From the NCBI GenBank assembly GCA_965207735.1, contig OZ242296.1, positions 3,200,001 to 3,264,000 of the forward strand: a stretch of DNA of 64,000 nucleotides. Direction: 5' to 3'. Origin of the DNA: Candidatus Versatilivorator sp. (GTDB lineage Bacteria > Acidobacteriota > Terriglobia > Versatilivoradales > Versatilivoraceae). Below, in pieces: positions 34,646 to 45,997 of this stretch. How positions within the stretch are numbered: the first letter of the stretch is position 1; each line of letters opens with the position of its first letter. A program made the translations under genes and the position numbers. A model generated the notes under the pieces. It was not told the DNA's origin, did not search any database, and worked only from the letters and a program-made list of their open reading frames with translations.

Positions 34646-35969
34646 TTCCTGTTTGAACGGGATCCACCTCACTCGCAGGGGCTTCCTGCGCGCGGGCTCA
34701 TTGGGTCTCTTCGGGCTCAGCCTGAGCCGCTATCTGCATCTCCAGCACCTGATGGCCTCCTCCGACTCCCCGGCGAAGCCGGCCGCCAAGGCCCAGGCCT
34801 GCATCCTGCTGTGGCTGGAGGGCGGTCCCAGCCAGGTCGACACCTTCGATCCCAAGCCCAACAGCGCCTTTGCACCGATTTCGACCAACGTCCCCGGCAT
34901 CCGGATCTCCGAGCTGCTGCCCCGGGTGGCCCGGCAGATGGACAAGCTGGCCGTTATCCGCTCGATGTATACCGAGGAGATCGATCACCAGCAGGCGACC
35001 TACTACGCAATCACCGGGCACCGTCCCAACTCGGCCCTGGAGTCTCCCAGCCTGGGCTCCATCATCGCCAGAGAGCTCAGTTCGCGCCGCAACATGCCCC
35101 CCTACGTGATCGCACCGCCCATCGATCGACCCTACCTGAACTACTTCAACGCCGGTTTCATCGGCGCGCGCTACCAGCCCATGGTGGTCCCCGATCCCGC
35201 CCAAGAAGACTTTCAGGTTCCCGACCTGGTGCTTCCCAAGGAGATCGGCATGGACCGGGTGTCCCACCGCCGCTCCTTTCTGGAGGTGGTCGACCGCCTC
35301 TATCGCAGCCAGGAGCAGAAGGCCGAGTTCGCGGCCCTGGACGACTTCAGGCAGCAGGCCTTGACCATCCTCGCATCCCCGCGGGTCCGGCAGGCCTTCG
35401 ATCTGTCACAGGAATCGGAGAAAACCCGGGACGAGTACGGACGCCACCGTTTCGGCCAAAGCGTGCTGCTGGCGCGCCGGCTGATCGAAGGCGGCTGCCG
35501 CTTTGCCACGGCCGCCGGATATGACATGACCGAGTGGGACCTCTGCCACGTGGAGAACGACAAGTACAATCGGGACCTGTTGGCTCCTCCTTTCGATCAG
35601 GCTCTGTCCGCCCTGATGAAAGACCTGGACCAACGGGGACTGCTGGAATCAACTCTGGTTGTGGCCATGGGCGAGTTCGGCAGAACTCCCCATGTCAATC
35701 CCCGCGGCGGCCGGGACCACTGGCCCCACTGCTGGTCGATGGTGTTGGGCGGCGGGGGGATTCAAGGGGGGCAGGTGATCGGCGCCAGCGACGAACGAGG
35801 GGCGCGGGTCGCAGACCGCATGGTGACAATCGGGGACTTGTTCGCCACCGTCTACAAGGCGCTGGGGATCGACTGGACCACGGAGTACATGACCCCCATC
35901 CAGCGTCCCGTCAAGATCGCCAACTCCATCGGCGGAGAGAGCGGCCTGCCCATCGAGGGCTTGATCTGA
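34629..35969 (+). CDS. DUF1501 domain protein with Tat-like signal
   Basis: TRRGFL; GGPSQVDTFDPKP, LARRLIEGG, GEFGRTP and GRDHW. Confidence 0.93.
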   Translation: MKSTSNSCLNGIHLTRRGFLRAGSLGLFGLSLSRYLHLQHLMASSDSPAKPAAKAQACILLWLEGGPSQVDTFDPKPNSAFAPISTNVPGIRISELLPRVARQMDKLAVIRSMYTEEIDHQQATYYAITGHRPNSALESPSLGSIIARELSSRRNMPPYVIAPPIDRPYLNYFNAGFIGARYQPMVVPDPAQEDFQVPDLVLPKEIGMDRVSHRRSFLEVVDRLYRSQEQKAEFAALDDFRQQALTILASPRVRQAFDLSQESEKTRDEYGRHRFGQSVLLARRLIEGGCRFATAAGYDMTEWDLCHVENDKYNRDLLAPPFDQALSALMKDLDQRGLLESTLVVAMGEFGRTPHVNPRGGRDHWPHCWSMVLGGGGIQGGQVIGASDERGARVADRMVTIGDLFATVYKALGIDWTTEYMTPIQRPVKIANSIGGESGLPIEGLI

Positions 35970-35981
35970 ACCGGCCCGTCC

Positions 35982-36815
35982 GGCTTGTCTGAAACAACCG
36001 ACAAAAGACTTATCCACGAAGGGGCACGAAGAACGACGAAGGGACACTAAGGCGCTGAGGTTAACCGCAACGGGGTACCAAGCTCGCGAAAGGATGGTCG
36101 ATTTCCGATTGTTTCACTCCCGAATGATCCGCCCACCAGGGCGGGGGCCGGACTTTTAAGTAATTGATTATCCCCGGGCGAACGCCCGGGCGACCCATTG
36201 AGCCGCGGAGCGGCGGCAGCAGGTAGCCGTGGGCGTGAGCCCATGGAAAGGGGTAGCTCCACGTCGAGCCGCGAAGGCGGCGGCAGCAGAGGGCCGAAAG
36301 CGCGAGGCCCCGGAGACCGGCTCTCCTGAAACAATAGAAAAAAGAGTTATCCACTAAGGCCGACCAAGGGCCACTAAGGCGTTGAGGTGAACCGCGACGG
36401 GGTACCAAGCTCGCGAAAGGATGGTCGATTTCCGATTGTTTCACTCCCGAATGATCCGCCCACCAGGGCGGGGGCCGGACTTTTAAGTAATTGATTATCC
36501 CCGGGCGAACGCCCGGGCGACCCATTGAGCCGCGGAGCGGCGGCAGCAGGTAGCCGTGGGCGTGAGCCCATGGATAGGGGTAGCTCCACGTCGAGCCGCG
36601 AAGGCGGCGGCAGCAGAGGGCCGAAAGCGCGAGGCCCCGGAGACCGGCTCTCCTGAAACAATAGAAAAAAGAGTTATCCACTAAGGCCGACCAAGGGCCA
36701 CTAAGGCGTTGAGGTGAACCGCGACGGGGTACCAAGCTCGCGAAAGGATGGTCGATTTCCGATTGTTTCACTCTCGGATGATCTGCCCGGCAGGGCAGGA
36801 GCCCGGCTTACCTGA
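35982..36815 (+). repeat. Tandem array of about 2.5 composite units (module A plus REP type 3 doublet), 327-bp period
   Basis: CTGAAACAA anchors at 35989, 36326 and 36653. Most of 36045-36772 is duplicated almost identically at +327. Confidence 0.95.
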
Positions 36816-36842
36816 GAATCTGCTGCTTAAGCCGGCTTCCTT

Positions 36843-36931
36843 GAGAGCGGCGAAGCCGCGCCAGCACTTAGCCGTGGGCGTCAGCCCATGGGAAGCGTCG
36901 CCTATGGGTGTCGAGCCGCGTAGGCGGCGAC
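36843..36931 (+). repeat. REP type 3 doublet; its last unit abuts the integrative element
   Basis: GAGCGGCGAAGCCGCGCCAGC..TAGCCGTGGGCGTCAGCCCATGG...GAGCCGCGTAGGCGGCGAC; same layout as 36200-36290. Confidence 0.8.
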
Positions 36932-39327
36932 TACATCAGAAAACTTGTAACTGCTCATTATAATAGACTTACTGTGGTTTGTCCTGTTGTAATCCCCTCA
37001 TTATATCCCTCTATTTGAACGGGAATCCACTGGACTATTCAGGACGTTGGTGGACGTAACTGTTCGGTCAAGGTGTGGAATACCGGTCGGTCGGCATCCT
37101 CCCCGCAGCGATCAAGCCACATTGCGTCGGTGTCGCCGCTGAGCCGCCATCGTAGCGGCTGGCCCCCCAGGTCAGGCCAGCCGAGAGTGCTCGCCAGCCA
37201 CGAAACCCCTCTACACGGCTGGCGAACCGACCATATCGTTCTGACTGCACGAGTTTCATCTCCGCTCTCTGCCCCCAGTCCCGATGGAGGTGGAAGGGGG
37301 ACGCTTCGTCGGTTGCTCGGTTAGCACAGAGGACAAACCCGCAGGAGGTCGAGCCCACAGCTTGACCGAACAGTTACTGGTGGACAGTCTTACGATCATT
37401 CGACCCCCGAGACTCTGCGTCCGGGAACGTCGAGCGGGGTGGCAAGCTGCCGGTGCTGCAGACCGGAGATGTCGGGTTGTGAGCATCCTCCAGCCTTGCC
37501 CTTCTCGGCCTCTGGCCATCTGTGGTCTTCTGTTCTTCGAGGGCTTCATAGACGAGGGCGCGCAGCCAGGAGCCGACGTCGAGGTGCCGCTGGATGACGA
37601 GGCGCTGGAGGCCTTCCCGCCAGGGATCACTGTGGAGGGAGCGACCCCCGAAAACGAGGGGCGGAAGGGTGGCCAGAGGCCTGGCCACCTTTCCACCCGC
37701 TCGTGGCGCACCAGCGGCAAAAATGAGGGGGTCGCTCCCTCCACTTCCTCCCCTCTCGTGCGGCGCGCCACCCCGCCGGGCGAGGGGGGGACGCGCGAGG
37801 CGCAGCCTCGCTTCGCTTTTCCGCAGCGGACGCGGGGAATCCGTGCCAACCCGCTTCCAATGCGGGTTTCCGGGCACAACCTGGACCACGACGGCGAGGA
37901 CTCCGCCCTCTGAGAGAGGAGCGTTGGGGTGGTCGAAATCATGTCCACCTTGGATGTCCACCCCGCCGTCTGAAAGGTGGACACCCCTACGACGCCACGT
38001 CCTTGACCCCCGGAGGCGGAAATCGTCGATCATGTCGCGGCCGTTGGAGGCCGGGTCTTCCTGCTCCCATTGGTCGATCTTCTCCATGACGACACCGAGG
38101 CCGCCATGGCGTTCGATCGTGTCCTGACCCCTGAATCCGCGAGCTTTGCGGGGGCTGGCTGGGCTTTCTCACTCCCTGGCATATCAGGACACCCCGGAAC
38201 GCCTCCTGGACCGATTCCCGTCTCAGGGACCGCAGGGACCGCCGCCTGTGGGGAAACCGGAATGGCCGGCTCGCTCAGCTGTCCCGGGGTCGCCATGCGG
38301 AGAGAGCGACCTCCGTGCGGGGGCAAAGGGTGTCCGGACTCCTGGCCGCCTTTGCCCTCCTCCGTGGCGCGCCAGCGCCGAAAAAGGGGGCGCTGTCACC
38401 GCCAGCACCCGTCTCGTGCGGCGCCGACGCGCCGGGCGAGGCGGGGACAGCGAGGCCGGCGCCGCAACGCGTAGTGCCGGGGAGCCAGCCTACCCAATGT
38501 AGTACATTGGCGCTGGCGAGGGGCTCCCGCCCCTTCGAACCCCCGACCGGGGGGAACTCCCCCTTGCCCCCCGTCATCCCCGCCGCTCCCTTCTTCCTCT
38601 GCCGGGAACTTGGAGCCTGGCTCTCACCCTGGTTTGCCCCGGGCAACCGATCCCCTGGGCCAGGTAACGCGCCCAGTCGTCCATCAGGACACGCCGGCGC
38701 TCGAACAGGTCCGAGCGGGCATAGGCCGCCTCGATCCGGTTCCGGACCACATGCGCCAGGGCCGCCTCGACCACCTCCCGGGGATGATCCGTCTCTTCGG
38801 CCGCCCAGTCCCGGAAGCTGGAGCGGAACCCGTGCGGCACGGCCGCAATCCCCTGCTCGCGGACCAGCCACCGCAGCTCCTTGTCATTGAGCGGCTTCCC
38901 TTGCCCGCGGGTGAACACCAGAGGACCGGCTCCTTCGCCCAGAGTCCGTGCCGCTTCGAGAATCCCCAACGCTCGGCCACGGACGACCAGGCGTTGAATC
39001 CAACTGCGGGTTCCGCTGGGCTGGACGAAGAGGTACAATCCGTTTCCATCGGCGTATCTACCGGGCGGAGCGGAGCGCAGGAAGGCAGCCGAGAGGGCGT
39101 TGCTGGGGTGACGGCCGGTGAGTTTGGTCTTAGGTCGGGCAGGAGCGAAGTCCGTTACCGTATCTATCCCCCCATATTATGGGGGATGGCAATGGATTTC
39201 AGGGGACGTTGGTAGCAAGTCAACCCACAGTAGAACTGGTCTAAGACACTCATAAATAACACAGTTATGGACTCTACTGGACGCCCCTAGACATCACTGG
39301 ATTTTATAGGGACGTTGCGGCGGCGGC
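36923..39327 (-). mobile_element. Decayed ~2.4-kb tyrosine-integrase element (integrative element remnant)
   Basis: Integrase pseudogene at the right end. Both termini are AT-rich and share motifs ATCCCC(T/C)CAT and TGGA...TTCAGG(GG)ACGTTGGT (about 36992-37051 and 39166-39213). Putative core GGCGGCG(A/G)C at 36923-36931 and 39319-39327. Confidence 0.65.
38574..39161 (-). pseudogene. P4-like tyrosine integrase with arm-DNA-binding N-terminus, internally deleted
   Basis: NALSAAFLRSAPPGRYADGNGLYLFVQPSGTRSWIQR is joined in frame to HGFRSSFRDWAAE...AALAH...AAYARSDLFERRR.LMDDW. The core-binding domain and first catalytic Arg are absent. The probable start reads ACG at 39161-39159. Confidence 0.9.
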
Positions 39328-39373
39328 AGCAAATGCCGGTGAGCCCAAGTGAAGCACAAGCCGACGCAATGAT

Positions 39374-39612
39374 GAGCCTTTTGCAAATATCGCAATCGGG
39401 AATGACATTGAGGCGGCAAGGATGATGTGCTGCAGGCTCCAGCATTCACCACGATAAGCACACGAGACAACAGAAAGCACAAAAGGCACAAAACGAGTTT
39501 CTTGATTTCGAGACTTGCCCATCCGATGGTTCTTTTTATGCTTTTTGTGGTTTTTGTGCCTTTTGTGGCCATTCCCGGCAAAGGTCCCGCTGGTGAATGT
39601 TGCAAAGGGCTC
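39374..39612. mobile_element. 239-bp MITE related to the IS at 9330-10816
   Basis: The first 55 nt match the IS left end at 45 positions; right end GAATGTTGCAAAGGGCTC; 4-bp target duplication TGAT at 39370-39373 and 39613-39616. Confidence 0.9.
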
Positions 39613-39691
39613 TGATGTTTATTTGAAACAACGCCTTGTGCCGGGTGGCGGAACATCCGTTCAAAATCAAACAAAGTTAGACGGCTAATTT

Positions 39692-39897
39692 ACATGGATG
39701 CACAGGATGGACAGGATTATTGGGCGAGAGTTTCCACCGTCATGAGTCCAACCATCGCCTCTGTTCCAACACAGATTTTCCAAGACCCGCTCCCAGGCTC
39801 TTGGATCAGTTCCAACAGCCGCCCGATCATCAAGCGGGTCTGCTTCTGTGGCACAGCCTCCCGTGCCGTTTATCCTGTTTATCCTGTGCATCCATGT
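39692..39897 (-). mobile_element. 206-bp element with 9-bp-periodic inverted ends enclosing a decayed GxxExxY-like gene fragment
   Basis: ACATGGATGCACAGGATGGACAGGAT and ATCCTGTTTATCCTGTGCATCCATGT are inverted copies (24 of 26). The minus strand reads MDAQDKQDKRHGRLCH, then after a frameshift KQTRLMIGRLLELIQEPGSG...EAMVGL. Confidence 0.65.
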
Positions 39898-40007
39898 TCA
39901 ATAAGTAGAAAACCGGTTTGGCACGACAGGGCCCTTGTTCCCGACAGGCCATGAAGACTCATTGTTTCACTCTTGTATGATCCGCCCGTCGTGGGGGGCG
40001 GGGGCCC

Positions 40008-40158
40008 GGCTTGCCTGAATCAGCAGAGCGACATCCCTTCGTGACCTTGCTATCCCGTCGCGGTAAGACTCAACGCCTTTGTGGCCCTTTGTCGTTCTTA
40101 GTGGCCCTTCGTGGATAACTCTTTTTCTTTTGTCTTTTTCGGTTGTTTCAGGCGAGCC
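40008..40158 (-). repeat. Inverted module A copy bounded by GGCTYGCCTGAA inverted repeats
   Basis: GGCTTGCCTGAA (40008-40019) and TTCAGGCGAGCC (40147-40158). The interior is a close reverse-complement match to 19149-19280. The 3' half of module A lies in direct orientation at 39961-40007. Confidence 0.85.
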
Positions 40159-45575: not shown

Positions 45576-45989
45576 TCACCCCAGTACTTCGAAAGCCAAC
45601 TTGCGACCGCGGCCGTAGCGGAAGACCGCGAAATCGTTATCAAAGGAGATGACCCGCGATATGCCAAGCCGTTCCATGAGCGCAAACGACGTTCGATCGA
45701 CAAGGGAGAAGTCCTGGTCGGGGAAGCGTTCGCCGATAGCCCAGGCACCCTCCAGGTCAGCCCAGGTTGTCTGTTCAATGGTCGCCGCTCCGTTTCTCAG
45801 ACCGGCCCAAAAAGTCTCTGCGGCGTTGGCAGAAATAAAATGGTGGAGGAGACGCCAAGTCTCAACCAGTATGTGGTCGCTGGTAACCAACGCTTCGTCA
45901 ATGGCAAGAAGGTGCTTCGCACGACCGTTGTGCTGGTCACCACGATCAGCGGCCGCGTACCAGGCCGAGCTGTCAACGAAGACGCTCAT
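45576..45989 (-). CDS. vapC: PIN-domain (VapC-like) toxin
   Basis: FVDSSAW, ILVET, FSLVDRTSFALM and SFDNDF provide the acidic PIN residues. Confidence 0.9.
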   Translation of the reverse strand: MSVFVDSSAWYAAADRGDQHNGRAKHLLAIDEALVTSDHILVETWRLLHHFISANAAETFWAGLRNGAATIEQTTWADLEGAWAIGERFPDQDFSLVDRTSFALMERLGISRVISFDNDFAVFRYGRGRKLAFEVLG

Positions 45990-45997
45990 GGCGGATC

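Follow-up and report, generated by a model that had tools for sequence, protein, structure and literature searches.

Tyrosine integrases of the IntSXT subgroup (P4 cluster) combine a DUF4102/Arm-DNA-bind_3 domain with a central and a catalytic domain, serve genomic islands, phage-inducible chromosomal islands (PICIs) and integrative conjugative elements (ICEs), and in the clusters described enter conserved genes (tRNA, guaA, prfC) (Smyshlyaev 2021, PMC8138268; what is stated here about this and other published work, except PMC12424338, holds for the parts of the sources that were available). We analysed a window of 64,000 nucleotides from Candidatus Versatilivorator sp. (contig OZ242296.1), corresponding to C1:3200001-3264000 of a single-contig genome of 5.26 Mb (G000), which harbours at positions 36923-39325 an integrative element of about 2.4 kb, an internally deleted copy. 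Its family shares with the IntSXT islands the domain architecture, a 7-bp core, the location of the integrase at one end and a defence-rich cargo. However, unlike those clusters, it uses a many-copy intergenic repetitive extragenic palindromic (REP) sequence as its target, fills 16 sites in a single chromosome and has spread non-autonomous derivatives.

Mobile elements residing in dispersed repeats are known: IS1397 and IS621 are REP-targeting insertion sequences (IS), and REP13E12 is a long, gene-sized repeat, not a hairpin associated with a REP-associated tyrosine transposase (RAYT). Further REP-targeting IS are ISPsy8, ISPa11, ISPpu9/10 and ISRm22/19 (Tobes and Pareja 2006, PMC1525189); like the elements described here they occupy a fixed position in REP palindromes and reach many copies, but they use transposases, whereas the present family has an arm-binding tyrosine integrase, phage-like attachment (att) ends and elements of up to 44 kb with cargo. 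The meningococcal MDA filamentous prophage in dRS3 (Bille 2005, PMC2212043) likewise has a palindromic target of several hundred copies and multiple insertions, but it is a phage with a sequenced circle and uses an IS621-like transposase, with no tyrosine integrase. The phiRv1 element in REP13E12 is also a site-specific recombinase element inside a dispersed repeat, although its enzyme is a serine recombinase (PMC9317374). The HE-PICI integrase clade, belonging to the P4/PICI group, has repeatedly evolved one kind of site, with subclades that match sites (Tommasini 2023, PMC10111431); its targets are prophage late genes, whereas here they are repeated sequences, namely REPs, cassette relics, domain codons and integrase genes. 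Among island surveys, TIGER/Islander placed 22.8% of islands in intergenic sites without naming REPs (PMC12424338) and ProBord 17.5%, the whole word 'REP' being missing from the available text (PMC13626063), while the available part of PMC12884075 contains no case of a REP-targeting tyrosine integrase. In our search of the open literature, no case came up of a tyrosine integrase that targets a REP or dispersed repeat; the TIGER database or Mageeney 2020 may list some.

A sequence-only reading of the window had proposed an element family using a multi-copy REP as bacterial attachment site (attB), and the comparative evidence from ends, empty sites and intact sisters supported this proposal. All 16 insertions occur at the GGCGGCG of the REP hairpin, and a P4-type integrase likely recombines a circular form of the element with this hairpin, a reading to which we assign, from sequence comparison, a probability of about 0.88. 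The 2.4-kb stretch has dozens of relatives across the genome: the left end returned 26 matches by blastn and 28 by nhmmer, the right end 22 and 26 respectively, and the backbone at 37378-38573 was covered by 15-59 blastn pieces per position. All 16 left ends of the family directly follow the hairpin AGCCGCGWAGGCGGCG; the 17-mer of the left junction has 67 copies in 5.26 Mb, yet it precedes every one of these ends. At the right ends (15/15), the core is followed by RCAGCA, where the repeat resumes. The ends were paired into 15 complete elements of 2,059-44,403 bp, 13 of which carry an exact GGCGGCG at both ends and two of which show one mismatch. For tyrosine integrases, 7 bp is the usual length of the exchanged segment (PMC10111431). 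The base 3' of the core was A in 16/16 left junctions, G in 11 and A in 4 right junctions, and A in 26 and G in 23 of 49 empty hairpins. This difference between left junctions on one side and right junctions and empty sites on the other indicates that the exchange is bounded at the 7-mer.

At the window copy, the junction motifs had been read as GAGCCGCGTAGGCGGCGAC (36913-36931) and GGCGGCGGCAGCAAATGCCGGTGAGCCC (39319-39346), and both were found in place. The higher AT content of the two inner ends and the arm-like motifs common to them, consisting of repeated (C/T)ACTGGA(C/T) and GGACGTTG, were likewise confirmed, as was the absence of a tRNA, since ARAGORN detected no tRNA or tmRNA in the whole window and the closest tRNA call in the genome lies 96 kb off. 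Other details had to be corrected. The core, previously described as an 8-of-9 match, is an exact 7-mer. The left flank, interpreted as the 5' half of a REP, is indeed REP sequence, but it retains a complete small hairpin and a complete Acido-Lenti-1 unit, only the 3' tail of the repeat being displaced by the insertion. Finally, the continuation GCAGCAGGTAGCCGTGGG, with which the right flank had been compared, belongs to a paralogue; the true continuation here is GCAGCAAATGCCGGTGAGCCCAAGTG, as in the empty site.

Empty sites were found both within the genome and in a congener. The rejoined window flanks gave 21 junction-spanning matches in the genome, the best being an empty paralogue at C1:721395-721158 with 97.5% identity over 239 nt. 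The genes flanking the window element are adjacent in 13/13 congeners. In one of these, G002 (locus L027), window positions 36333-36929 matched 224-866 and positions 39319-40022 matched 860-1562, so that the two flank matches overlap by exactly the 7-bp core, and the hairpin is uninterrupted; the other 12 congeners carry neither the hairpin motif nor the element in the orthologous gap. The site of a second element, C1:734103, likewise stands exactly empty in G002. Since the orthologous sites are empty with an intact hairpin, the REP is older than the insertion at both loci, and a later arrival of REPs beside the element, considered in the sequence-only reading, was not what we observed. A survey of 15 orthologous windows (L174, L177 and L182 unresolved) showed an empty hairpin at the matching place in three, one of them exact, most of the others having no REP. 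Moreover, a contig from sequencing run X15 joins 36922 to 39319 with seven shared letters and may represent any empty paralogue.

Between positions 35900 and 40200 the Rfam family Acido-Lenti-1, catalogued as a candidate RNA (Weinberg 2010, PMC2864571), exceeded its gathering score three times (36201-36246, 36528-36573 and 36846-36891). The genome contains 67 hairpins and 96 central units of the repeat, which were intergenic at the loci inspected. Within the genus, 4 of the 30 PF01797 loci are intact Y1 transposase genes with inverted repeat sets on both sides, and these four RAYT loci (L140-L143, in G012, G011, G001 and G002) carry the hairpin together with an Acido-Lenti-1 unit, of the same type as the unit bordering the element in the window. 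Inverted REPs flanking a Y1 gene constitute the RAYT arrangement (PMC3390384). Judged by this arrangement the target repeat is a true REP, and the data suggest that the Rfam 'sRNA' Acido-Lenti-1 is a REP, which behaves as a RAYT-associated REP in this genus. No cognate RAYT was found in the genome of the window; its sole PF01797 match is flanked by a different repeat and was ruled out as a candidate on that ground. Insertions occupy 16 of the 65 hairpins with a GGCGGCG core and tail, compared with none of the 48 whose core is AGCGGCG (Fisher p 6.5e-5) and 0/17 isolated GGCGGCGRCAGC (p 0.034); both p values overstate the significance, as the copies are kin.

Intact sister elements code for an integrase of roughly 400 aa in which PF13356, PF22022 and PF00589 form an architecture of the IntSXT/P4 type (PMC8138268). 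The sister at L001:690-1910 scored above all three domain cut-offs, and 9/9 intact family integrases in the genome retain the R, K, HxxR, H and Y motifs. These nine are bounded by the same REP core rather than lying at tRNA genes; the expectation that intact homologs consistently split this REP thus held for the family copies of G000 but not for the sister clades, which use other targets. The window integrase consists only of an N-terminal piece (25.3 bits, cut-off 27) and a C-terminal part, and lacks the first catalytic R and the K, about 229 central codons being missing at 38974-38980, where the two parts are fused at a 7-bp microhomology. The identical fusion occurs in five copies including that of the window. 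The copy at C1:4408614 carries the window's deletion and is 99.3% and 97.3% identical to it on either side of an inserted miniature inverted-repeat transposable element (MITE); the similarity begins at the hairpin and ends at GCAGCA, the left flank being only about 40% identical to that of the window. A deletion shared with a copy in unrelated flanks is therefore most simply read as att-precise movement in trans after loss of the integrase, and the window copy, a non-autonomous deletion derivative, was probably moved by the enzyme of an intact sister.

An integrase or its remnant is present at the element end in 15/15 complete elements, while IS transposases occur only as variable cargo, and the family has no DDE/DEDD transposase of its own of the kind that characterizes REP-targeting IS. 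The best integrase homologs in a phage collection were about 39% identical, and solved structures matched partial integrase domains only. All 31 family ends lie at least 3.2 kb from any of the 51 tRNA/tmRNA calls, so that integration at a tRNA or tmRNA gene, as in P4 in the strict sense, does not describe this family; a duplicated short exchange core and an empty attB in relatives were both found. In its predicted workings the family resembles a P4-type island, but one with no tRNA target.

We propose that the P4-type integrase would recombine the excised circle, bearing an attP of the form GTTGC-GGCGGCG-ACTACA, with any such REP hairpin. The enzyme would bind both to core sites flanking the 7-mer and to the arm repeats of the AT-rich ends; by exchanging strands over the 7-mer it would restore the hairpin at the left and shift the RCAGCA tail rightwards. 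Copies of the deleted 2-kb form cannot make integrase and were likely moved by the enzyme of an intact sister. As about 65 intergenic hairpins fit, a normally single-site integrase would act as a targeted transposase, with a quarter of the sites filled.

Several observations weigh against this scheme. The attP junction was not found in the genome or in the fetched loci; viral contigs gave one match only, in an unrelated context and attributable to chance, and metagenome contigs gave none, in a search of little power whose control found only one right end. No back-joint was present among the joints and loose ends listed for the contigs of six runs, the circle search covering contigs only and omitting runs whose word share was small. 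The host arm on the left (CGCGTA) poorly matches the core-site sequence of the element, one left end (C1:3351771) is unpaired, and in the family member L016, which is the same element as L049, the right junction is not of the REP type. The cargo scans, which covered selected open reading frames (ORFs) of at least 170 aa, and the searches with the backbone gene revealed no transfer module. In the integrase tree the deep forks are only partly supported, and several outgroup or basal targets are unmapped. Finally, 5/15 complete elements share both flanks, and the repeat concerned has about 22 junction-spanning paralogues; some copies may have spread together with this flanking repeat.

The last observation also supports a different explanation, in which the integrase is a passenger and either the RAYT transposase of the REP or gene conversion between dispersed repeats moves the element and its REP flanks as a composite. 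The five elements sharing both flanks of one composite repeat, the RAYT association of the repeat and the resemblance of four right flanks to the 3' end of a RAYT gene are all in line with such transport. On the other hand, the element is not enclosed by two REPs, but splits one hairpin with a 7-bp duplication; the 15 rejoined sites represent, by inspection, 11 flank contexts; the closest relative of the window copy has unrelated flanks, its similarity ending at the junctions; the only PF01797 gene found in the genome is flanked by a different repeat; and the targets differ in sister integrase clades whose arms are similar. We therefore consider composite movement improbable as an account of the family.

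The use of REP hairpins as insertion sites was also evaluated in relatives of the window genome. The right end is present in 12/13 congeners, in 0/11 other genomes of the family Versatilivoraceae and in 1/16 more distant genomes. Of the fetched right ends, 18/20 are of the REP type, the exceptions being L016 and one genome that belongs to another family and has a different core; a partner left end was within reach at 13 of the 18 REP-type loci, and the hairpin precedes it in all 13. A set of 79 homolog loci with 70-94% identity, which overlaps the fetched right ends and is not additive to them, showed neither a tRNA gene nor a recognisable tRNA piece at any of the 71 integrase-proximal ends that could be mapped.

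These counts bear on a further possibility, namely that the integrase has its primary site at the 3' end of a tmRNA or tRNA gene and enters REP hairpins secondarily. The tmRNA of the genome (C1:4065184-4065542) does contain the heptamer at its 3' end, in antisense and approximately where tRNA-Ser islands have their core, and relatives at 46-56% identity are integrases of tmRNA, tRNA-Arg and tRNA-Ser islands. However, family ends are absent from the tmRNA and from the 3.2 kb around each of the 51 tRNA/tmRNA calls, the tmRNA heptamer is followed by GGAGTC instead of RCAGCA, none of the mapped ends displays a tRNA 3' piece, and in the trees the family is nested within clades whose cores differ. 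A primary target in the tmRNA, which is unoccupied by the family and has a different flank, was rejected; the heptamer match is probably a coincidence, and a primary tRNA or tmRNA site appears even less plausible than composite movement. That the junction match arose by chance, as had earlier been thought possible, or that REPs came later beside a dead element, can be given hardly any weight. In favour of this view, the core is a short, GC-rich sequence, the genome has 1056 occurrences of GGCGGCGRC and the intergenic gap is a repeat mosaic differing among all congeners; the 16/16 left ends in one register, the 15/15 right ends and the match of the rejoined flanks to the empty paralogue speak against it, and the orthologous empty site with its intact hairpin refutes it.

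Phylogenetic analysis placed the REP-targeting integrases in a wider group. Sister subclades each have a target of their own, and the type of target tracks the integrase clade in both a quick tree and a FastTree analysis; families with similar arms but different targets occur among these sister clades. The rejoined target of family B reads like what we take to be the start of a GxxExxY gene, its core TGCACRG lying inside a repeat. Family C has the core TACGCGG in a related palindrome on the opposite strand, which also adjoins a PF01797 gene (L146). Another acidobacterial clade targets a GTCCCC repeat, and two clades insert within integrase genes: family E splits the integrase of the window's family (family A) at its FEFLVL codons, and a Vicinamibacterales clade enters an integrase gene at DGNGLYL codons. 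The target of a mainly Gemmatimonadota subclade is formed by the T-V-T codons of repeated surface-protein domains, and the rejoined flanks read through as the repeated domain at four loci. Family D, whose core is approximately CCCTGCGG, seems to insert at a site of the shared backbone (window about 37620-37630), giving nested elements. L054 and L083 have integrases outside the family-A clade, yet their right ends lie in the REP family used by family A, a hint that these integrases were retargeted to it independently. The element at G000 C1:2004800-2009007 combines a left arm of family-A type (94% identical) with the core and integrase of family B; in this hybrid the target therefore follows integrase and core, not the arm. 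Rows L083, L091, L104 and L110 were left out of the rejoined-junction comparison.

A more careful tree was built from 38 of 126 rows, with target labels assigned by eye and a root resting on two outgroup rows. It recovered the non-tRNA clade with support 100/99, nested among integrases of tmRNA, tRNA-Arg and tRNA-Ser islands. Three tRNA-Ser islands (L122, L126 and L129) were confirmed, each having an intact tRNA-Ser end with the matching fragment at a distance of 13-32 kb, the 'tRNA-Ser fragment' labels of L121, L123, L125, L132 and L134 being unconfirmed; such islands are the nearest confirmed tRNA-targeting relatives, at 48-56% identity. REP specificity likely descends from an ancestor that targeted tRNA 3' ends. 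The targets of the clade include two RAYT-REP subtypes, a cassette relic, surface-domain codons, its own backbone and other integrase genes, and on balance we lean towards the view that a P4-type integrase clade left tRNA genes and repeatedly re-evolves specificity for many-copy sequences of its host. The records of the clade come from Acidobacteriota, Gemmatimonadota and a few Gammaproteobacteria and look largely sponge-associated; sponge metagenomes also figure among the sequencing runs in which part of the element is present.

The features of the window element and the loci of related groups are collected in Table 1.

Table 1. Coordinates of the window element, its parts and related loci (window positions unless a locus or contig is given).
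Feature	Position	Strand	Evidence or remark
Acido-Lenti-1 (RF01687) unit of the REP cluster, just beyond the element	36846..36891	-	cmscan 46.3 bits, gathering score 37
Target hairpin AGCCGCGTAGGCGGCG, host arm and core of left junction, intact after insertion	36914..36929	+	sequence, fold
7-bp core GGCGGCG, left copy	36923..36929	+	
Element left end: ACTACA abutting the core, AT-rich spacer, arm-like CACTGGAC and GGACGTTG motifs	36930..37055	+	role inferred
MITE-like insert, 322 bp, secondary passenger	37056..37377	.	23-bp terminal inverted repeats, 8-bp TGGTGGAC duplication
Shared backbone, mainly non-coding	37378..38573	.	strong hairpins, two diverged 72-bp repeats
3' remnant of the 338-aa backbone gene	37941..38126	-	tblastn 45% identity
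P4/IntSXT-type tyrosine integrase remnant	38574..39167	-	arm-binding N-terminus fused to catalytic C-terminus; start codon ATA
Element right end: AT-rich spacer, arm-like repeats, CGTTGC abutting the core	39168..39318	+	role inferred
7-bp core GGCGGCG, right copy	39319..39325	+	
Displaced 3' tail of the repeat (GCAGCAAATGCCGGTGAGCCC...)	39326..39400	+	contiguous with left flank in empty sites
338-aa backbone gene	L187:12418-13431 (G000 C1:2881315-2882331)		
T-V-T-codon subclade	L074, L075, L081, L082, L084-L089, L092, L094, L096, L101		
Integrase-in-integrase insertions	G000 C1:3885282-3871656; L021; L112, L115-L118		
Family D	G000 C1:636601, 1014084, 1124436, 1111415		
Cargo-bearing sister elements	L185, L186, L189, L193-L195, L197		

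A gene of 338 aa directly follows the integrase in several elements and is left as a remnant in many others. It matched no Pfam family. In comparison with the Atlas, the clusters at 0.97 are unnamed and the nearest named one is DUF5697 (0.87), while a cluster at 0.85 has Replic_Relax on 41% of its members, a weak lead towards a relaxase or replication protein. Three backbone ORFs in 37259-38087 of the window likewise matched no family in a Pfam search. Among the ORFs selected for the cargo scans, sister elements carry Zorya II-like zorA/zorB/zorE, a dcm methylase, a PDC-S02-like gene, a fusion of reverse transcriptase (RT) and nitrilase, restriction-modification genes of type IIG, an RT of the retron type and ankyrin proteins, besides numerous IS.

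The MITE-like insert of the window belongs to a family of 322 bp with GTAACTGTTCGGTCAA termini, present in 11 copies in G000; a shorter form of about 140 bp with the same termini was also observed. Most copies occupy nearly one and the same position within the left arm of these integrative elements, in families A, B, C and E, and the MITE seems to be a passenger that targets the elements themselves. A contig of a sequencing run is devoid of the insert, joining 37055 to 37387. Upstream of the element, a 327-bp tandem array of mixed repeat modules extends over 36025-36809, within the intergenic mosaic mentioned above. A PIN-domain gene with a small upstream gene, likely a VapBC-type pair, is located at 45576-46246.

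The family breaks the rule of thumb by which P4-type integrases use one conserved gene per genome, and it gives the REPs spread by RAYTs a further function, that of a renewable landing pad for islands reaching 44 kb. If the proposed reading is true, these elements would be site-specific in mechanism and transposon-like in their spread, yielding non-autonomous minis, and would ride on landing sites multiplied by another mobile system, the RAYT. Close relatives, about 80-95% identical and with distinct mapped 7-bp cores, offer a natural series for the change of integrase target, and this retargeting series could give multi-site integration tools.

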